Below are positions 3,013 through 15,061 of a DNA stretch of 21,071 bases, piece after piece. The notes below the pieces were generated by a model that made no database searches, was not told the DNA's origin, and saw nothing but the letters and a program-made list of their open reading frames with translations. Each line of letters opens with the position of its first letter. Position 1 is the first letter of the stretch. The position numbers and the translations under genes were made by a program. Location: the IMG/VR virus record IMGVR_UViG_2740892258_000010; one strand, written 5' to 3'. The stretch comes from a virus (taxonomy: Duplodnaviria; Heunggongvirae; Uroviricota; Caudoviricetes).

Positions 3013-3689
3013 CGCCATTGCTCTCCAAATACAAAACCAATTTCAGCCAGTGCTTCGTCCATTTTTTCGATGAACTCCGGCACCATCTCGTCAAAACTCG
3101 CCATGTACTTTTCATCCCGCTCAACCACGACATAATGCAGGCCTTCACGCTTCATTCGTGGGTCATAGTTGGCAAAGTACCAGGCATCTTTTCGTGTCAC
3201 CCACATGCTGTACTGCACCTGGGCCATGTAAGCCGACTTTATGGCCTCGAAACCACCGAGCCGGAACTTCATGAAATCCCGGGAGGTAAACGGGCATTTC
3301 AGCTCAAGGCCATTGCCGTCACTGCATAAACCATCGGGAGAGCAGGCGGTGCGCATACTTTCGTCGCGATAGATGATCGGGGATTCAGTAACATTCACGC
3401 CGGAAGTGAATTCAAACAGGGTTCTGGCGTCGTTCTCGTACTGTTTTCCCCACGCCAGCGCCTTAGCATTAACTTCCGGAGCCACACCGGTGCAAACCTC
3501 AGCCAGCAGGGTGTGGAAGTAGGACATTTTCATGTCAGGCCACTTCTTTCCTGAGCGGGGCTTTGCTATCACGTTGTGAACTTCTGAAGCGGTGATGACG
3601 CCGAGCCGTAATTTGTGCCATGCATCATCCCCCTGTTCGACAGCTCTCACGTCGATCCCGGTACGCTGCAGGATAATGTCCGGTGTCAT
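3009..3689 (-). CDS. exo: Lambda exonuclease (Red-alpha)
   Basis: 226-aa translation matches lambda Exo essentially end to end ([40 protein letters not shown]...GFVFGEQWR). 4-nt overlap with bet. Confidence 0.95.
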
Positions 3690-4471
3690 GCTGCCACCTT
3701 CTGCTCAGTGGCTTTCTGTTTCAGGAATCCAAGAGCTTTCACTGCTTCGGCCTGTGTCAGTTCTGACGATGCGCGAATGTCGCGGCGAAATATCTGGGAA
3801 CAGAGCGGCAATAAGTCGTCATCCCATGTTTTGTCCAGGGCAATCAGCAGAGTGTTAATCTCCTGCATGGTTTCATCGTTAACCGGAGTGATGTCGCGTT
3901 CCGGCTGACGTTCTGCAGTGTATGCGGTATTTTCGACAATGCGCTCGGCTTCATCCTTGTCATAGATACCAGCAAATCCGAAGGCCAGACGGGCACACTG
4001 AATCATGGCTTTATGCCGTAACATCCGTTTGGGATGCGACTGCCACGGCCCCGTGATTTCTCTGCCTTCGCGGGTTTTGAATGGTTCGCGGCGGCATTCA
4101 TCCATCCACTCGGTAACGCAGATCGGATGATTGCGGTCTTTGCGGTAAATCCGGCATGTACATGATTCATTGTCCTGCTCAAAGTCCATACCATCAAACT
4201 GCTGGTTTTCATTGATGATGCGGGACCAGCCATCAACGCCCACCACCGGAACAATGCCGTTCTGCTTATCAGGGAAGGCGTAAATTTCTTTCGTCCACGG
4301 ATTAAGGCCGTACTGGTTGGCGACGATCAACAATGCGATGAACTGCGCATCGCTGGCATCACCTTTAAATGCCGTCTGGCGAAGAGTGGTGATCAGTTCC
4401 TGTGGGTCGACAGAATCCATGCCGACACGTTCAGCCAGCTTCCCTGCCAGCGTTGCGAGTGCTGTACTCAT
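3686..4471 (-). CDS. bet: Recombination protein Bet (Red-beta)
   Basis: 261-aa translation matches lambda Bet ([66 protein letters not shown]...). Confidence 0.95.
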
Positions 4472-4476
4472 CCGTT

Positions 4477-4773
4477 TTATACCTCTGAATCAATATCAGC
4501 CTGATGGTGAGCAATGGTTTCAACTATGTACCGGATGTGTTCTGCCATGCGCTCCTGAAACTCAACATCGTCATCAAACGCACGGGTAATGGCTTTTTTG
4601 CTGGCCCCGTGGCGTTGTAAATGATCGATGCATAGCGATTCAAACAGGTGCTGGGGCAGGCCTTTTTCCATGTCGTCTGCCAGTTCTGCCTCTTTCTCTT
4701 CACGGGCGATCTGCTGGTAGTGACGCGCCCAGCTCTGAGCCTCAAGACGATCCTGAATGTAATAAGCGTTCAT
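4477..4773 (-). CDS. gam: Gam, RecBCD inhibitor (98-aa short form only)
   Basis: 98-aa ORF matches the lambda Gam core ([21 protein letters not shown]...DIDSEV). The upstream ATG that gives the 138-aa form in lambda ([10 protein letters not shown]...) is at 4892-4894 but is out of frame with the core here. Confidence 0.9.
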
Positions 4774-4848
4774 GGCTGAACTCCTGAAAATGGCTGTGAA
4801 AATATCGCCCGCGAAATGCCAGGCTGATTAGGAAAACAGGAAAGGGGG

Positions 4849-4992
4849 TTAGTGAATGCTTTTGCTTGATCTCAGTTTCAGTATTAATATCCATTTTTTA
4901 TAAGCGTCGACGGCCTCACGAAACATCTTTTCATCGCCAATAAAAGTGGCGATAGTGAATTTAGTCTGGATAGCCATAATTGTTTGATCCAT
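4849..4992 (-). CDS. kil: Kil (host-killing/FtsZ-inhibiting protein)
   Basis: Last 47 codons of the 89-aa ORF 4849..5118 read [47 protein letters not shown], which is lambda Kil with one substitution. Start taken at this Met. Confidence 0.85.
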
Positions 4993-5125
4993 TTTTTGGG
5001 ACTCCTGGCTGATTAAGTATGTCGATAAGGCGTTTCCATCCGTCACGTAATTTACGGGTGATTCGTTCAAGTAAAGATTCGGAAGGGCAGCCAGCAACAG
5101 GCCACCCTGCAATGGCATATTGCAT
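4961..5125 (-). CDS. cIII: CIII (FtsH inhibitor, stabiliser of CII)
   Basis: Not in the ORF track (54 aa). Manual translation gives [54 protein letters not shown], matching lambda CIII. 3' end overlaps the kil start as in lambda. Confidence 0.85.
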   Translation of the reverse strand: MQYAIAGWPVAGCPSESLLERITRKLRDGWKRLIDILNQPGVPKNGSNNYGYPD

Positions 5126-5197
5126 GGTGTGCTCCTTATTTATACATAACGAAAAACGCCTCGAGTGAAGCGTAATTGGTATGCGGTAACGCCGCGC

Positions 5198-5566
5198 TCA
5201 GGCGGCCTTGATAGTCATATCATCTGAATCAAATATTCCTGATGTATCGATATCGGTAATTCTTATTCCTTCACTACCATCCATTGGAGGCCATCCTTCC
5301 TGACCATTTCCATCATTCCAGTCGAACTCACACACAACACCATATGCATTTAAGTCGCTTGAAATTGCTATAAGCAGAGCATGTTGCGCCAGCATGATTA
5401 ATACAGCATTTAATACAGAGCCGTGTTTATTGAGTCGGTATTCAGAGTCTGACCAGAAATTATTAATCTGGTGAAGTTTTTCCTCTGTCATTACGTCATG
5501 GTCAATTTCAATTTCTATTGATGCTTTCCAGTCGTAATCAATGATGTATTTTTTGATGTTTGACAT
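5198..5566 (-). CDS. ea10: Ea10-like early protein
   Basis: 122-aa ORF between cIII and ral, the position of lambda ea10. Identity by synteny and recollection. Confidence 0.6.
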   Translation of the reverse strand: MSNIKKYIIDYDWKASIEIEIDHDVMTEEKLHQINNFWSDSEYRLNKHGSVLNAVLIMLAQHALLIAISSDLNAYGVVCEFDWNDGNGQEGWPPMDGSEGIRITDIDTSGIFDSDDMTIKAA

Positions 5567-5586
5567 CTATTCATATCCTCATAGAT

Positions 5587-5612
5587 AAAAAATCGCCCTC
5601 ACACTGGAGGGC
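5587..5612 (-). terminator. Intrinsic terminator between ral and ea10 (leftward transcript)
   Basis: On the minus strand: GCCCTC-cagtgt-GAGGGC stem-loop (plus coordinates 5595-5612) followed by a T6 run (plus-strand A-run 5587-5592). Confidence 0.6.
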
Positions 5613-5748
5613 AAAGAAGATTTCCAATAATCAGAACAAGTCGGCTCCTGTTTAGTTACGAGCGACATTGCTCCGTGTATTCACTCGTTGGAATGAATAC
5701 ACAGTGCAGTGTTTATTCTGTTATTTATGCCAAAAATAAAGGCCACTA

Positions 5749-5949
5749 TCAGGCAGCTTTGTTGTTCTGTTTACCAAGTTCTCTGGCAATCATTGCCGTC
5801 GTTCGTATTGCCCATTTATCGACATATTTCCCATCTTCCATTACAGGAAACATTTCTTCAGGCTTAACCATGCATTCCGATTGCAGCTTGCATCCATTGC
5901 ATCGTTTGAATTGTCCACACCATTGATTTGTATCAATAGTCGTAGTCAT
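5749..5949 (-). CDS. ral: Ral, restriction-alleviation protein
   Basis: 66-aa translation (MTTTIDTNQWCGQFKRCNGCKLQSECMVKPEEMFPVMEDGKYVDKWAIRTTAMIARELGKQNNKAA) matches lambda Ral. Confidence 0.9.
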   Translation of the reverse strand: MTTTIDTNQWCGQFKRCNGCKLQSECMVKPEEMFPVMEDGKYVDKWAIRTTAMIARELGKQNNKAA

Positions 5950-6019
5950 ACGGATAGTCCTGGTATTGTTCCATCACATCTTGAGGATGCTCTTCGAACT
6001 CTTCAAATTCTTCTTCCAT
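5933..6019 (-). CDS. Small acidic protein, lambda orf28 equivalent
   Basis: Not in the ORF track. Manual translation gives MEEEFEEFEEHPQDVMEQYQDYPYDYDY (28 aa). Overlaps the ral start by 17 nt. Confidence 0.55.
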   Translation of the reverse strand: MEEEFEEFEEHPQDVMEQYQDYPYDYDY

Positions 6020-6162
6020 ATATCACCTTAAATAGTGGATTGCGGTAGTAAAGATTGTGCCTGTCTTTTAACCACATCAGGCTCGGTGGTTCTCGTGTAC
6101 CCCTACAACGAGAAATCGGATAAACTCTATTCACCCCTACAGAGAGCAAAAGAGAAACGCCG

Positions 6163-6744
6163 ATGAACAACTCATGGTGGCAGGAACTAATGCATTTTTT
6201 CCTGCAAGGAATGACACTTAAACAGTTGATTCATATGCTAATCATCCTGATCATATTGATTATTGTTATGCCGGTAAGCGTAAAAGAATGGATAAACCTG
6301 CATAATCCAGAAATCCTTCCTCATTACTGGATGTATTACATCCTGTTGTTTTGCGTTAGCTATGTGCTTAACGGCGTTGTTAATTCCGCTTATCACGCTG
6401 TGACTGAAAGAATTGAGGTATTCGCTGCTCAGAAGCGCAAATCTAAAGAAGAAAAATATGTGCAAGATTTGTTTGATTCGTTAACTCTTGGAGAAAGAGC
6501 GTATTTGGCATTCGCTGTAGCCGCTAATAACCAGCTACAAACGGAAAAGGGCGCTCATGAATCAATTTCATTGCTCAAAAAAGGACTCCTCGTTCGAAGG
6601 CCTCCTGCTGTTGGATATCCTGATACCGACCGTTTCGTTATCCCTGAAAGCTATAGACATGAGTGCTACATTAGGTTTGCCGGGAAGGCAGACAGCCTTA
6701 TGGATGAACTTATCGCTCAGGATAAGCATGGCAAAAACAAGTAA
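6163..6744 (+). CDS. sieB: Superinfection exclusion protein B
   Basis: 193-aa ORF with a hydrophobic N-terminal region (MLIILIILIIVMPV..., YILLFCVSYVLNGVV...). Matches lambda SieB by recollection. Convergent with N. Confidence 0.85.
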   Translation: MNNSWWQELMHFFLQGMTLKQLIHMLIILIILIIVMPVSVKEWINLHNPEILPHYWMYYILLFCVSYVLNGVVNSAYHAVTERIEVFAAQKRKSKEEKYVQDLFDSLTLGERAYLAFAVAANNQLQTEKGAHESISLLKKGLLVRRPPAVGYPDTDRFVIPESYRHECYIRFAGKADSLMDELIAQDKHGKNK

Positions 6745-6760
6745 TTAGCAAATGAATTTA

Positions 6761-7033
6761 TCATCTCGCCGTCAGTTGTTTTGATTTCCGGTAGCCTGCC
6801 GCGTAAAGAGCTACGTTCGGAAGACAAGTTGAACCTTCATATTTTCTGGTCAACGTTGTCAGAGTTATCACTTCTGCTCTCATTGCTGGTTTGAGCTTGC
6901 ATTGCAAGACCACTCGTGAAGGGGTTGGCCTGTGTAGCTTGTCGGAGCTGATCGCCTCCTGACTTTGCAGATTTGCGCGACGAGCTCTACGGCGAGAAGC
7001 TGCGGTGCCTTTAAATTCTGTTTTTCTGGACAT
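6761..7033 (-). CDS. N: N-type transcription antiterminator (P22/21-like, not lambda N)
   Basis: Start placed at the internal Met (MSRKTEFKGTAASRRRARRA...), which has a GGAGG ribosome-binding site; the ORF track extends 24 codons further upstream. Arginine-rich motif near the N-terminus. C-terminus (NVALYAAGYRKSKQLTAR) resembles the P22 gene-24 antiterminator. Confidence 0.75.
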   Translation of the reverse strand: MSRKTEFKGTAASRRRARRANLQSQEAISSDKLHRPTPSRVVLQCKLKPAMRAEVITLTTLTRKYEGSTCLPNVALYAAGYRKSKQLTAR

Positions 7034-7131
7034 GGATTCCTCCCGAATAAACTTTGGCGATGCAATCTCGAAGCTCCTCCTGAGACGGTTGCTTCGGCAT
7101 TGCATCCCACAGCTTATGTGGTTGGGTGATC

Positions 7132-7177
7132 TGGCTTTTCAGCCACGTAGTCGAGAGTCGACGTTGTTTAAAGAGCC
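7132..7177 (-). promoter_or_regulatory. Putative nutL (boxA plus boxB hairpin)
   Basis: Minus strand reads GGCTCTTT (boxA-like) ... CTACG-TGGCT-GAAA-AGCCA (boxB-like stem-loop). It aligns almost base for base with the site downstream of cro at 9813-9858. Confidence 0.5.
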
Positions 7178-7222
7178 TGCCAGTCTGTTCCATTTGGCTT
7201 CCAGCGTCCTGCTGACGGTTAA

Positions 7223-7251
7223 ATAGTACGATATGTACTTTACAAGATCAA
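7223..7251 (-). promoter_or_regulatory. Putative pL with overlapping operator
   Basis: Minus strand: TTGATC, 17-nt spacer, TACTAT. The spacer contains AAAGTACATAT, the same 11-mer found in the spacer of the putative pR. Confidence 0.45.
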
Positions 7252-7440
7252 TACAATTTGTTGTAAGTTGGCGTGGTTTTTTATAACGCTTTGTATTTAA
7301 TAGTGTTGTTTTTTAGCGTGGATGTATTGCCTCGGCGATGTAAGGAGAGATCAGAATTGCGTGGTTTAGTGGGTTGCATCTATTTATTTTTCAATAAATA
7401 TAATTGGTTATGTGTTTTTAGGTGGGCGAACGTGAGGCAA

Positions 7441-7464
7441 AGAAAACCCGGCGCTGAGGCCGGG
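7441..7464 (-). terminator. Intrinsic terminator ending the cI operon
   Basis: Minus strand: CCCGGC-ctcagc-GCCGGG stem-loop followed by TTTTCT, beginning 5 nt after the stop of the 250-aa gene. Confidence 0.65.
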
Positions 7465-7469
7465 TTGTA

Positions 7470-8222
7470 TTATGCTGCAAGTCTCTTAACCCAAGTCTCT
7501 CTTTTGGAGAATGGTAGAACTTGGCTTGATTCATGGAAGAGTAAGGAGAGTTGTTGCATTTGATCACCAATTGCTTCGCTGTCTATAACAACAAATCTGT
7601 TGTTATACTCCTCACTTGAAGCTTTAAGATCAATTAGTTTCCCAAGCAATGAGTAAGCACTATTCCAGCTTCCTCCGTGTTTCACGCTTGATGTAAAAAC
7701 GTATTTAGGTATGTCGGTTTTTATTGTTACAGGGACGGTAATTTGATGTCCACTCAAGCCATATACGTTTTCACGAAGAGAAAGTGCGTCTCTAAGCTCT
7801 GTGTGATATAGATAATCAATAACCATACTTTCAAACTTTTCAGCTTGAACTGGCTGATACCAGTCTAACGACAAAGTTGATGCGAGTATACCAGCTCTAA
7901 TTATGTTCGATGTAATCGCACCGACATCCTTTTCTGTTGCCCAAGCAATGATTTCTCCTCGAGCATTGAGTTCTGCGCCTTCTTTAAGCAGTAATTGTCG
8001 TATCTCATCAAGTCGTTTTTTGGTAAGCGAGATCCCTCTTGCCTCCATATTCATTAAGGCATCGCATCTGTCACTAACTAAATACCTACCATTGACTTCA
8101 CGGATAAAGGCACCGACATGCTCTCCATCATCACAGTAAGTGAATGGACTGATAATTCTCAAGGTCTTGCCTATTGGATGGCATTCGAAACCTAGTTGTG
8201 AGATCACTGTTGAGCACATCAT
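7470..8222 (-). CDS. Unknown protein B of the cI-linked two-gene cassette (candidate exclusion/defence component)
   Basis: 250-aa ORF. No recognisable motif and no obvious transmembrane segment. Start ATG overlaps the stop of the upstream gene (ATGA). Visibly AT-rich compared with the flanking lambda genes. Confidence 0.7.
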   Translation of the reverse strand: MMCSTVISQLGFECHPIGKTLRIISPFTYCDDGEHVGAFIREVNGRYLVSDRCDALMNMEARGISLTKKRLDEIRQLLLKEGAELNARGEIIAWATEKDVGAITSNIIRAGILASTLSLDWYQPVQAEKFESMVIDYLYHTELRDALSLRENVYGLSGHQITVPVTIKTDIPKYVFTSSVKHGGSWNSAYSLLGKLIDLKASSEEYNNRFVVIDSEAIGDQMQQLSLLFHESSQVLPFSKRETWVKRLAA

Positions 8223-8776
8223 ATTCCAAACCCCATTTGCCCCGACTCATCTTCAAGCGGTAAAGGTATTCTCCCAGAGTAAGTTATGTTCAGATGTTTA
8301 CAGAAGTAATTCCAATACCCTACCAGGTCATCTGGGTTTATGTCATCTTCGATTGGAAACGCTATTCTATCACTATAGTATCCAGCTTCTTCATAGTATA
8401 CATGGTAGTGAGCACCGTAAATGATATCTTGGTACTTCGGATGATCGACCTTGTAACTATTCGTGTGTTTGTCAAAGTGATAGGTATCTACCGCGAAAAC
8501 CCTCTTGTTATGATAGAAAGCAATAATATTTATTTTAGGGTAAGAAATCGGGTCATCAGGTTCTGAATCCTGATCTGGTTTCCATTTCAGTTCAAACTTT
8601 AGCCCTTGTATAGGTATACAATCCTCATCCAAGGGGATGATATGGGCTTGTAGCCACATATCAGAGCGACTTGGTTTCTGTTTCCATTTAACGCCAGAAA
8701 AGTTAACTATTTTTTTACAATAAAGTACTTTATCAACTTCTACTTGGCTTGGCTGATAATCATCTATTTTTGCCAA
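8219..8776 (-). CDS. Unknown protein A of the cI-linked two-gene cassette (candidate exclusion/defence component)
   Basis: 185-aa ORF starting 39 nt after the cI stop with no intervening terminator. The annotated start is TTG; the first in-frame ATG is at codon 40, so the true start is uncertain. Tyr/His/Asp-rich; no motif recognised. Confidence 0.6.
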   Translation of the reverse strand: MAKIDDYQPSQVEVDKVLYCKKIVNFSGVKWKQKPSRSDMWLQAHIIPLDEDCIPIQGLKFELKWKPDQDSEPDDPISYPKINIIAFYHNKRVFAVDTYHFDKHTNSYKVDHPKYQDIIYGAHYHVYYEEAGYYSDRIAFPIEDDINPDDLVGYWNYFCKHLNITYSGRIPLPLEDESGQMGFGI

Positions 8777-8815
8777 TGTTTACCGCCCTGTAAATTGTAG
8801 ATAAAAGTGGTTTCA

Positions 8816-9475
8816 TCACCCAAACGTCTCTTCAGGCCATTGGCTGGCGATAACTTTCCCCACAACGGAACAACTCTCATTGCATGGGATCATTGGGTAT
8901 TGTGGGTTTAGTGGCTGTAGAAACACCTGACCGCTATCCCTGATCAGTTTCTTGAAGGTAAATTCATCACCACCAAGTCTGGCTATGCAGAAATCGCCGG
9001 GCTCAACAGCTTGCTCAGGGTCAACCAGAATTAACATCCCGTCAGGAAAGCTGGGTTTGGAACCTGTTGGTGCGGTCATTGAGTTACCTTCAACCTCAAG
9101 CCAGAATGCAGAGTCACTGGCTTTTTTGGTTGTGCTTACCAATCTCTCCGCATCGCCTTTGGTAAAGGTTCTGAGTTCTGGAGAGAACATCCCAGCCTGA
9201 ACATGAGAAAAAACAGGGTACTCATATTGTTTTTTAACTGGGGCCGATGAGTATTCGCCAACAGGTGAAAATGTCCCGTCGTGGTTGAATGATATGTTAT
9301 CAATACCAAGGTATTTAAACACCACACCAATATCACTAAGAGATGGATGACGAGATCCGCGCAACCAGTGTCCAATCCCACCCTGCGTCATACCTAGCTC
9401 TTCGGCTAACTTCTCTTGAGTTATGCCGAGCTCTTTCATTCTGGATCTAGCCAGTTCATACCATTTCATTTTCAT
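8816..9475 (-). CDS. cI: CI-type prophage repressor (HTH plus S24 LexA-like autocleavage domain)
   Basis: N-terminal HTH ([20 protein letters not shown]). C-terminal domain has a Gly-Asn-Ser-Met segment and a downstream FKKL lysine consistent with the Ser/Lys dyad. Divergent from cro. Start ambiguous among 9517, 9475 and 9469. Confidence 0.85.
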
Positions 9476-9530
9476 GTCCTTATTATTACGCTCTGTACTG
9501 GAACCATCCATGCACAATGTGTATTTTTAC

Positions 9531-9559
9531 TTGTATTCGCAAAGTACATATTGTATTTT
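9531..9559 (+). promoter_or_regulatory. Putative pR with overlapping operator
   Basis: TTGTAT, 17-nt spacer, TATTTT. The spacer contains AAAGTACATAT (9541-9551), identical to the pL spacer motif. TGTATT recurs three times across 9520-9557. Confidence 0.4.
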
Positions 9560-9586
9560 TTTATTCGTGTTTACTATGGAGGGCAT

Positions 9587-9802
9587 ATGAGCAACCTACG
9601 AAAATATCGAGAGTCACTGAATATCTCTCAAACAACACTTGCTAAGGCAGTTGGATGCACACAGGGAGCTATCGGACATTGGGAATCTGGTCGTCGCTTC
9701 CCAGACCTTAAAACATGCCGTGCTCTTGTTGCGTGCCTAAACAAGTTAGGCGCAAAAGTCAGTCTTGATGACGTGTTCCCGCCGGAACACAAAGCCGCTT
9801 AA
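9587..9802 (+). CDS. cro: Cro-type repressor (HTH)
   Basis: 71-aa protein (MSNLRKYRESLNISQTTLAKAVGCTQGAIGHWESGRRF...) with GGAGGG 4 nt upstream of the ATG. Divergent from cI. The ORF track extends it artificially to 9416. Confidence 0.8.
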   Translation: MSNLRKYRESLNISQTTLAKAVGCTQGAIGHWESGRRFPDLKTCRALVACLNKLGAKVSLDDVFPPEHKAA

Positions 9803-9812
9803 TAAGCGGATC

Positions 9813-9858
9813 CGCTCTTTGTAACAACGGACATTCGTCCTACGTCGCTGAAAAGCGA
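9813..9858 (+). promoter_or_regulatory. Putative nutR (boxA plus boxB hairpin)
   Basis: CGCTCTTT (boxA-like) ... CTACG-TCGCT-GAAA-AGCGA (boxB-like), just downstream of cro. Same spacing and loop as the nutL candidate. Confidence 0.5.
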
Positions 9859-9943
9859 GTTCCAAGATATCTGACCAACTAAGGCCATATGCGTTTCCAC
9901 GCATACCTTTCAACTAACTATTCACTATTGGAAATCTTAAGAA

Positions 9944-10240
9944 ATGGAAAGAACAAGTTACAGCAAACTATCACAGCGTGACGTTGATCGCGCAGAAACA
10001 GATTTACTTATCAATCTGTCAGCTATTACCCAGCGCGGTCTGGCAAAGATGATTGGCTGTCATGAATCGAAGATAAGCAGAACGGACTGGAGATTTATTG
10101 CTTCGGTCTTGTGTGCTTTCGGAATGGCATCAGACATCAGTCCGATTAGCAGGGCTTTTAAGTATGCGCTTGATGGACTCACCAATAAAAAACGCCCGGC
10201 GGCAACCGAGCGTTCTGAACAAATCCAGATGGAATTCTGA
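9944..10240 (+). CDS. cII: CII transcriptional activator (hybrid: non-lambda N-terminus, lambda C-terminus)
   Basis: 98-aa ORF. The last ~19 residues (LTNKKRPAATERSEQIQMEF) match lambda CII; the N-terminal two thirds do not. Confidence 0.85.
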   Translation: MERTSYSKLSQRDVDRAETDLLINLSAITQRGLAKMIGCHESKISRTDWRFIASVLCAFGMASDISPISRAFKYALDGLTNKKRPAATERSEQIQMEF

Positions 10241-10272
10241 GGTCATTACTGGATCAATCCACAGGAGTCATT

Positions 10273-11177
10273 ATGACAAATACAGCAAAAATACTCAACT
10301 TCTGCAGAGGTAACTTTGCCAAACAGGAGCGTAATGTGGCAGATCTCGATGATGGTTACGCCAGACTATCAAATATGCTGCTTGAGGCTTATTCAGGCGC
10401 AGATCTGACCAAGCGACAGTTTAAAGTGCTGCTTGCCATTCTGCGTAAAACCTATGGATGGAATAAACCAATGGACAGAATCACCGATTCTCAACTTAGC
10501 GAGATTACAAAGTTACCCGTCAAACGGTGCAATGAAGCCAAGTTAGAACTCGTCAGAATGAATATTATCAAGCAGCAAGGCGGCATGTTTGGACCAAATA
10601 AAAACATCTCAGAATGGTGTATCCCTCAAAACGAGGGAAAATCCCCTAAAACAATAAAAACATCTCAGAATGGTGTATCCCTCAAAACGAGGGAAAATCC
10701 CCTAAAACGAGGGATAAAACATCCCTCAAATTGGGGGATTGCTATCCCTCAAAACAGGGGGACACAAAAGACACTATTACAAAAGAAAAAAGAAAAGATT
10801 ATTCGTCAGAGAATTCTGGCGAATCCTCTGACCAGCCAGAAAACGACCTTTCTGTGGTGAAACCGGATGCTGCAATTCAGAGCGGCAGCAAGTGGGGGAC
10901 AGCAGAAGACCTGACCGCCGCAGAATGGATGTTTGACATGGTGAAGACCATCGCGCCATCAGCCAGAAAACCGAATTTTGCAGGGTGGGCTAACGATATC
11001 CGCCTGATGCGTGAACGTGACGGACGTAACCATCGCGACATGTGTGTACTGTTCCGCTGGGCATGCCAGGACAACTTCTGGTCCGGTAACGTGCTGAGCC
11101 CGGCCAAACTCCGCGACAAGTGGACCCAGCTCGAAATCAACCGTAACAAGCAACAGGCAGGCTTTAGCTTAATTTAA
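10273..11177 (+). pseudogene. O: Replication initiator O, frameshifted in the ori iterons and altered at the C-terminus
   Basis: N-terminal ORF (10273..10860) and C-terminal ORF (10731..11177) both match lambda O but are in different frames. The frame change coincides with a 56-bp tandem duplication. The C-terminus ends ...NRNKQQAGFSLI instead of continuing as in lambda. Confidence 0.85.
10597..10708. repeat. Perfect 56-bp tandem duplication within the ori iteron array
   Basis: 10597-10652 and 10653-10708 are identical by direct reading (aataaaaacatctcagaatggtgtatccctcaaaacgagggaaaatcccctaaaac). 56 is not a multiple of 3. Confidence 0.9.
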
Positions 11178-13810: not shown

Positions 13811-14635
13811 GGCCGCCACACCAACTGTGCCGCCGCCACCGATCCGAAACACGAATTTAATTACCAGCAGGCGGTTGAGCGCCTTCCTGGTGAAGATCCG
13901 GCTCAGCTGAACGACCCGGCCTACCGTCGTCTGCGTATCATTACCGATAACCTCAAACAGGAAGAGCACGCCATTGTCCAGGTGGAAGAAATGCAGGCGG
14001 TGAATGCCGTGCTGTATGGCAAATACACCATGGAAGGGGATCAGTTTGATACTGTCGAGGTGGATTTCGGGCGCTCTGAAGGAAATAACATTGAGCAGGC
14101 TGACGGTAAAAAATGGTCTGAGCAGGACCGTGATACGTTTGATCCGACGCATGATATTGACCTCTACTGCGATCAGGCCAGCGGCCTTGTGAATATCGCC
14201 ATTATGGACGGTACGGTCTGGCGTCTGCTGAATGGCTTTAAGCTGTTCCGCGAAAAACTGGATACCCGTCGCGGCTCAAATTCACAACTCGAAACGGCAG
14301 TGAAAGATCTGGGCGCAGTGGTGTCCTTCAAGGGGTATTACGGCGATCTGGCCATTGTGGTGGCGAAAACGTCTTATATAGCAGAAGACGGTATCGAAAA
14401 ACGTTATCTTCCAGATGGCATGCTGGTTCTGGGGAATACTGCTGCAGATGGGATCCGTTGTTACGGTGCCATTCAGGATGCTCAGGCGTTGTCCGAAGGT
14501 GTGGTGGCCTCTTCCCGTTATCCGAAACACTGGCTGACGGTAGGGGATCCCGCCCGTGAATTTACCATGACGCAGTCCGCGCCGCTGATGGTGTTGCCGG
14601 ACCCGGATGAGTTTGTGGTGGTACAGGTGAAATAA
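13811..14635 (+). pseudogene. E: Major capsid protein E, 3' fragment (5'-truncated)
   Basis: Open frame from the stop at 13808-13810 to 14635 matches the lambda E C-terminal region (...AYRRLRIITDN..VEEMQAVNAVLYGKYTM...LTVGDPAREFTMTQSAPLM...). There is no N-terminal region and no ATG; the first candidate start is a GTG at 13982. Confidence 0.8.
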
Positions 14636-14644
14636 TCCGTGAGC

Positions 14645-14672
14645 GGGGGCGAAATGCCCCCGTGTCTTTTTT
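14645..14672 (+). terminator. Intrinsic terminator downstream of E
   Basis: GGGGGC-gaaat-GCCCCC stem-loop followed by GTGTCTTTTTT. Confidence 0.6.
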
Positions 14673-14686
14673 CACAGGGGGCTGAT

Positions 14687-15061
14687 ATGGCAACGAAAGA
14701 GCAAAATCTGAAACGGCTTGATGAACTGGCCCTGATTCTGGGGCGTGAGCCGGATATATCCGGGAGTGCCGCAGAGATAGCGCAGCGGGTGGCAGAATGG
14801 GAAGAGGAAATGCAGTCATCCGGCGATGATGTACAGGTTATGAATATGGATATCCGGGAGCGGGAAACCGCGGCTCATGATGTTCGTGAGGAAACATCCG
14901 GCGCGTTAACGCGCATCAGAGTTCTGACCTGCCTCCATCTCTGTGGCGTTGATGGTGAAACGGGGGAATCCGTTGAGCTTGCGGATGTTGGTCGGGTGAT
15001 TCTGATTATGTCCTCAGATGCAAAAACACACGTTGATGGTGGAATGGCTGTTTATGCGTGA
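14687..15061 (+). CDS. FI-position head/DNA-packaging protein (non-lambda allele)
   Basis: 124-aa acidic protein (MATKEQNLKRLDELALILGRE...) between E and FII, with an AGGGGG ribosome-binding site. Assigned by synteny. Stop overlaps the FII start. Confidence 0.55.
   Translation: MATKEQNLKRLDELALILGREPDISGSAAEIAQRVAEWEEEMQSSGDDVQVMNMDIRERETAAHDVREETSGALTRIRVLTCLHLCGVDGETGESVELADVGRVILIMSSDAKTHVDGGMAVYA

Follow-up and report, generated by a model that had tools for sequence, protein, structure and literature searches.

The subject of this analysis is a two-gene cassette, here called A-B, located directly behind the cI repressor gene in a 21,071-nucleotide stretch of DNA from a virus of the Caudoviricetes (IMG/VR record IMGVR_UViG_2740892258_000010). 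The whole of this stretch is referred to below as the window. A-B is putative, uncharacterised defence cargo of a prophage immunity region that two computational resources have already published as a candidate. The explanation given slightly more than even weight is that it is a lysogen-expressed cargo module that lambdoid and other temperate phages carry in their immunity region, its most likely role being to defend the lysogen from other phages through superinfection exclusion or abortive infection. The position of the rexAB genes behind cI in the immunity region of lambda is well established, and the original prediction, made from the letters of the window, had proposed that A-B is an exclusion cassette occupying the equivalent slot. 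This idea is reasonable, and the pair is a good, as yet unproven, defence candidate.

Organization of the cI-A-B operon

The phage that hosts the cassette is a lambda-like E. coli prophage. Region 7400-8850 of the window is 100% identical to Escherichia phages ev017 and ev207 (NC_049948, NC_049949) and to PhiR57_1 and PhiR63_2 (PV340572, PV340574), which are part of the Laub laboratory ECOR temperate-phage collection; its identity to an Stx1a phage is 99.4%. The genes of interest are encoded by the minus strand in the order cI (8816-9511), a spacer of 39 nt (8777-8815), gene A (8219-8776), gene B (7470-8222) and an intrinsic terminator (7436-7466). The first gene of this maintenance operon codes a repressor with HTH_3 (E 2e-10) and Peptidase_S24 (E 1.3e-28) domains defined by Pfam, and the same gene is named cI in the annotation of PV340572. 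Gene A begins with a TTG codon and codes a protein of 185 amino acids (WP_001062368.1), MAK being the amino terminus of every A homologue. The product of gene B has 250 amino acids (WP_000968518.1). The two genes overlap by the sequence ATGA at 8219-8222. A terminator scan of the spacer between cI and A returned no terminator-like site. Its single promoter-like match (9/12) belongs to a class that is not enriched over shuffled sequences in this region, and no internal promoter is claimed. The terminator, which is equivalent to tM/tIMM, is formed by a hairpin at 7466-7445, whose stem has 8 bp (6 GC) and whose loop has 6 nt, followed by the T-rich tail TTTTCTTTG. Its folding energy is -17.2 kcal/mol (z = -2.6) and it starts 3 nt past the stop codon of B.

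The G+C content of A+B is 39.6%, compared to 47.3% for the window, 46.3% for cI and 49.5% for N. This value is found in the lowest 0.5% of 1307-bp windows and makes the cassette the AT-richest part of the sequence. The reading frames of 185 and 250 codons, the gap of 39 nt devoid of a terminator, the ATGA overlap and the high A+T content relative to the flanking genes had all been called in the original prediction and are confirmed. The terminator that it placed after B exists, but at 3 nt rather than 5 nt from the stop codon. The horizontal acquisition that it suggested fits both the low G+C content and the occurrence of a near-identical cassette linked to a different immunity region (see below).

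Conservation of the A-B pair in temperate phages

A scripted survey gathered 99 related loci, 80 of them from IMG/VR, distributed among E. coli, Salmonella, Klebsiella, Photorhabdus, Thorsellia and Aeromonas. Gene A is found directly 5' of gene B on the same strand in all of them (99/99). The junction between the genes is ATGA in 78/99 loci and another type of overlap in 21/99. A repressor gene immediately precedes A in nearly all loci, a small extra gene coding a DUF3024 or a membrane protein being occasionally inserted between the two. At least six families of HTH or HTH+S24 repressors are represented, with mutual identities below 40%. At the other end of the cassette a hairpin followed by a T tract is present 3' of B in 99/99 loci, which represent 54 distinct downstream sequences. 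It is found at no more than about 20 nt from the B stop codon in nearly all cases, and its stems vary by compensatory changes. Unbiased genome look-ups that started from B homologues showed the succession repressor, A and B with a 4-nt overlap every time, in Aeromonas caviae, Thorsellia and Photorhabdus as well as in Gifsy-like prophages of Salmonella and Rac-like prophages of Klebsiella. The conserved order and terminator, the diversity of repressors and the cargo exchanges described below strongly back the cI-A-B-terminator architecture and its predicted equivalence to the lambda rex slot, as the original prediction had it.

A distant pair, with about 30% identity, is coded by Pseudomonas phage VB_PaD_phPA-G downstream of a CI-like repressor gene, again with a 4-nt overlap. 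Its B homologue is recognised by hhalign with a probability of 99.5% (E 5.5e-23) and its A homologue with 95.7% (E 1e-8). Note that this A homologue is an open reading frame (ORF) that lacks annotation in GenBank (3486-4004 of the extracted locus L101; about 14515-15033 of PP083311.1) and overlaps the annotated B-like gene by 4 nt. Protein A has diverged faster than B in each of the pairs compared. Comparison of the A and B homologues gave saturated synonymous substitution rates (dS), non-synonymous rates (dN) of 0.09-0.47 and dN/dS ratios of 0.03-0.19 where these could be computed. A and B are real genes under strong purifying selection.

The cassette is found on the chromosome, in one copy and with at least 99% identity, in 241/5426 complete E. 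coli genomes (4.4%). The carriers include the uropathogen CFT073, the probiotic strain Nissle 1917, NU14 and the type strain ATCC 11775. This presence in gut and urinary strains, together with the low G+C content and moron-like character of the cargo, would be compatible with lysogenic-conversion genes that alter host fitness, stress tolerance or virulence independently of phages. Such a role is the least probable of those considered: A and B are cytoplasmic proteins without secretion or membrane signal, their domain content is of nuclease and sensor type, and the pair was flagged by two independent defence-prediction resources.

In CFT073 and Nissle 1917 both genes are intact and 100% identical to the window copy. 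The cI gene of both strains is annotated as a split pseudogene (5347-6048 of locus L017 and 4347-5048 of locus L018, respectively). The preservation of the cassette in these defective prophages despite a broken cI is in line with the favoured role in protecting the lysogen and can also be read as the sign of a toxin-antitoxin-like addiction module that stabilises the prophage or the immunity region, one protein being a toxic nuclease or hydrolase that the other neutralises. Translational coupling of A and B through their 4-nt overlap would serve such a module, and the DUF1829 protein DS-6B was proposed to act in an antitoxin-like manner on a HipA-type kinase (PMC13092281). Against it, searches of Pfam, NCBIfam and PADLOC linked neither A nor B to any known family of toxins or antitoxins, neither has a recognisable antitoxin DNA-binding domain, and the position behind the repressor gene is typical of exclusion cargo. 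An addiction module is held improbable, if somewhat less so than lysogenic conversion; many toxin-antitoxin modules are themselves defence systems, and this explanation overlaps with the protection of the lysogen that is favoured here.

Features of proteins A and B

Both proteins are soluble. No transmembrane segment was found in either of them, the maximal hydropathy over 19 residues being 0.45 for A and 1.19 for B, and a search of NCBIfam with A and B gave no match. Searches of the PDB with the sequences of A and B and with the profiles of both families returned nothing meaningful, and A has no relative there.

The AlphaFold2 (AF2) model of protein A (mean predicted local distance difference test, pLDDT, 85.5; predicted template modelling score, pTM, 0.84) is rich in beta structure. 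Alignment with relatives at 20-48% identity identifies K22, W31, R92, D97, H104, N106, H123, H125, F158, P173 and Q180 as invariant or near-invariant residues, among which the cluster D97..H104xN106..H123xH125 is invariant. A beta-beta-alpha (His-Me finger) motif was considered as a putative reading of residues 118-137. Of the whole pair, it is the amino terminal half of A that varies most. The carboxyl terminus ends in a conserved GQxxL tail for which disorder is predicted (pLDDT 43). A profile search run exhaustively over 1.84 billion cluster representatives yielded only 32 relatives of A, all of them small single-domain proteins, and no informative domain fusion was found among them. The similarity of A to Pfam DUF6978 (PF22398) reaches 22 bits, below the gathering threshold of 29.6. 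Such weak matches are found in 17/22 close members and 6/23 distant members of the A family (best E 2e-6). The link of A to DUF6978, and likewise to the PADLOC family PDC-M24A, appears real but weak from these profile comparisons.

Protein B features two domains in its AF2 model (pLDDT 84.7), in agreement with the HHpred assignment published for exactly this protein, which places DUF1828 at residues 25-114 (99.5%) and DUF1829 at residues 155-241 (98.8%) (DefensePredictor Table S5, PMC13092281). The amino terminal domain has a fold similar to YbjN and type III secretion chaperones. Its match to Pfam DUF1828 (PF08861) scores 33.5 bits for a gathering threshold of 22, is shared by 28/28 homologues and covers the best-conserved part of B (entropy 0.3-0.8 bits). 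The carboxyl terminal DUF1829 domain has a restriction-endonuclease-like alpha/beta fold of the PD-(D/E)xK type (clan PDDEXK, CL0236), at variance with the statement in the original prediction that no nuclease signature was recognised in either protein. Direct hmmscan of the 28 B members against the DUF1829 profile (PF08862) gave no match at E <= 1. The invariant residues of B are GxSGH159, K173, D198, R209 and D214.

The cargo slot behind the repressor gene

The sibling phage PhiR11_1 (PV340547.1) matches window positions 6001-7466 and 8814-10300 with 99% identity and carries different cargo in between, which amounts to a precise swap from the cI stop codon to the terminator. The PhiR11_1 cargo consists of two unrelated genes coding proteins of 283 and 163 amino acids (3565-4945 of locus L100) and is an uncharacterised candidate in its own right; neither gene has a match in Pfam or PADLOC. 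Two IMG/VR loci (L040 and L041) have the cassette and the N side in common with the window at about 95% identity, and their cI-cro segment (8843-9812) is of another immunity type. The breakpoint at which these loci change immunity region coincides with the 26 bp at 8818-8843, which correspond to the 3' end of cI and are 96% identical in the heteroimmune phage 933W. This short sequence may act as a recombination linker that bounds the cargo slot.

In 933W the gene order is cI, L0084, L0083, stk and L0081, followed by a terminator annotated as 'tM; putative terminator for pM transcript'. The 933W tM region is 82% identical to window positions 7346-7464, with a core of 63 bp at 98%. The stk product matches the hidden Markov models (HMMs) of PD-T4-6/mad6 kinases with E values down to 7e-50. 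Gene L0084, directly behind cI (5299-5640 of locus L099), codes a DUF3024 protein assigned to the PADLOC candidate PDC-S43 (E 4e-41). The DUF3024 family is a recurrent occupant of the slot, being found between the repressor gene and A in five IMG/VR loci (within L053-L058). Because both the tM terminator and the 26 bp that close cI are conserved, the cargo slot is bounded by two short conserved junctions, at 8818-8843 on the right and at the terminator on the left, between which cargo is cleanly swapped. The slot is a hotspot for cargo, defence genes included, and an easy one to mine for further systems.

This exchange of cargo bears on the possibility that A-B serves the life cycle of its own phage, by tuning the maintenance or induction of lysogeny or by processing phage or host DNA in the lysogen. 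A role of this kind is exemplified by RexB of lambda, a modulator of ClpXP substrates. The association of the pair with a repressor gene across many phage types, the DNA-enzyme-like fold of B and the very strong conservation of its DUF1828 domain, which would fit a conserved host or phage partner, are in line with it. The presence of unrelated cargo in sibling phages that have the same cI and flanks shows that A-B is dispensable for the genetic switch, of about 200 phage records with the terminator in common only 7 contain the cassette, and the occurrence of at least six unrelated repressor types argues against a repressor-specific function. A role in the phage's own cycle is accordingly held unlikely, to a degree between those of an addiction module and of lysogenic conversion, and protection of the lysogen by exchangeable cargo is retained as the preferred explanation.

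The elements surrounding the slot are those of a lambdoid immunity region. OR-like operators and the region of the repressor-maintenance promoter (PRM) are assigned by repeat matches and position to 9513-9561, between the divergent cI and cro genes. OL-like operator repeats that resemble the cI-cro intergenic sequence at 9541-9561 are found just past the terminator, at 7221-7262, and are evidence of low weight. Operator-like sequences of the TACATATTGTA type at these two places flank the cI-A-B block; their count in the whole window is not above chance and their positions alone are suggestive. Since sequences of the cI-cro operator type recur at 7221-7262, the cassette would lie between OL and OR like lambda rexAB. 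Further to the left, just past N and on the opposite strand, is a sieB superinfection-exclusion gene (6163-6744, plus strand; Pfam SieB E 2.5e-22, phrog_1301 E 3e-122). The left arm of the immunity region thus has a second exclusion function beside A-B. A full-length match to the lambda cIII thermoregulator RNA element (Rfam RF01804, 88.5 bits) is located at 5080-5138 on the minus strand.

Defence prediction and previous literature

The designation of the pair as unrecognised in the original prediction does not hold. PDC-M24 is the sole PADLOC family matched by either protein, and each protein corresponds to its counterpart half. The PDC-M24B HMM matches B with E 4.7e-10 over residues 2-249 (4-254 of the 256 profile positions) and matches 28/28 members of the B family (best E 7.8e-12). 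The match of A to the PDC-M24A HMM is weak (E 4.8e-4), covers residues 104-163 and is found at E < 0.01 in 8/22 members. A literature search found no paper that names or tests PDC-M24. In addition, both exact proteins are listed as "Predicted novel defense gene" in Tables S5 and S10 of DefensePredictor (DeWeirdt, Mahoney and Laub, Science 2026, PMC13092281), with log-odds of 4.90-5.42 for A and 5.64-6.26 for B. Among the 27 tested units in the 4-8 log-odds band of Table S6 of that work, 12 were protective, which translates into a rough prior of 45% on a panel of 24 phages. The same study newly implicates DUF1829 in defence through DS-6B/HipAD. No functional study of DUF1828, DUF1829 or DUF6978 was found in the literature.

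Earlier work also concerns Nissle 1917, whose resistance to lambda and Stx phages was credited in part to the prophage that carries the cassette (Bury et al. 2018, PMC5987069). Not all the responsible genes are identified there, and EcN_1291 and EcN_1292, located between sieB and cI, are given as hypothetical proteins only. Note that the primers described for the Nissle 1917 'phage repressor pr' (EcN_1294) correspond to window positions 9898-10181 and map to cII (9944-10240), not to cI. The protective gene cloned in that study therefore appears to be the cII homologue.

Several observations weigh against a defence role. On the side of the proteins, A has no recognisable enzymatic fold, and it matches PDC-M24A and DUF6978 only weakly, with E values of about 1e-4 and under the Pfam gathering score. 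No canonical D..(D/E)xK triad can be made out among the invariant residues of B. Its K173 is invariant in the enterobacterial and Aeromonas family and lost in the Pseudomonas homologue, and the DUF1829 domain may only bind DNA, as proposed for DS-6B/HipAD. On the side of function, read-through from PRM into A-B is deduced from the sequence, and the literature search found no experimental evidence for A-B function. WP_001062368 and WP_000968518 are absent from the 94 tested units of Table S6 (PMC13092281), and more than half of the tested candidates at this score level gave no protection. With both sides taken into account, a defence function of A-B is about evenly balanced between true and false.

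Possible mode of action

In the model that follows from the preferred explanation, transcription from PRM would pass the cI stop codon into A and B and end at the tM-like terminator, and translational coupling would ensure that A and B are made together. The two soluble proteins would probably form a complex. The DUF1828 domain of B may be the docking site of the conserved, disordered carboxyl terminal tail of A (..P..GQxxL), an idea suggested by the fold that this domain shares with peptide-binding type III secretion chaperones and YbjN proteins. A cue from the infecting phage would then activate the complex, the fast-evolving amino terminal half of A being the best candidate for a specificity determinant. 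One or both conserved centres would attack nucleic acid and halt phage development. In A the candidate is the D-HxN-HxH cluster, and in B it is the domain of PD-(D/E)xK fold, which includes an invariant GxSGH motif.

A more specific proposal is that A is a new enzyme or sensor fold with a D-HxN-HxH metal centre, partnered with a B protein that combines a chaperone fold and a PD-(D/E)xK domain, and that the two constitute a new two-component anti-phage mechanism specialised for the repressor operons of temperate phages across Gammaproteobacteria. The variable amino terminal half of A would read the cue and its conserved tail would switch B. This elaborate version is speculative and rather unlikely to be correct in full. 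Should A-B prove to act in defence, prophage-borne immunity would gain a pair of uncharacterised mechanism; no validated system with a DUF1828 domain or an A fold was found. The pair is already carried by 4.4% of complete E. coli genomes, those of Nissle 1917 and CFT073 among them.

Comparison with known systems

The closest organizational parallel is lambda RexA-RexB. In both cases two genes lie directly 3' of cI, on the same strand, in the OL-OR immunity region and with a terminator before PL, and both pairs would be expressed in the lysogen together with the repressor. The proteins are not similar in sequence or architecture: RexB is a membrane protein of the polytopic type, hydrophobic segments are absent from A and B, the folds are distinct, and no Rex homology of A or B was detected in PADLOC, Pfam or PHROGs. 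The cargo of the 933W pM operon occupies the same slot, from the cI stop codon to a homologous terminator. Its proteins are entirely unlike those coded by the window, with a kinase of the PD-T4-6 family, by HMM, in 933W compared to a nuclease-fold protein and a protein of unknown fold in A-B. Stk is reported to exclude phage HK97 (Friedman et al. 2011).

PDC-M24 is likewise composed of two genes, and its halves are matched by B and, more weakly, by A. As the matches are weak, the window pair is likely a divergent sister branch of this family, which is itself only a candidate. DS-6/HipAD is a validated two-gene defence system of E. coli whose second protein carries, like B, a DUF1829 domain of the PD-(D/E)xK clan (PMC13092281). 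Its partner is a HipA-like kinase and not an A-like protein, the amino terminal domain of DS-6B is DUF3037 instead of DUF1828, and the DUF1829 assignment is weaker in DS-6B than in B (HHpred 78% compared to 98.8%). DS-34 differs by its other type of repressor and its single membrane-associated effector. It resembles A-B in arrangement, being a validated defence unit composed of a prophage CI repressor and an AbiZ-like gene directly behind it (PMC13092281).

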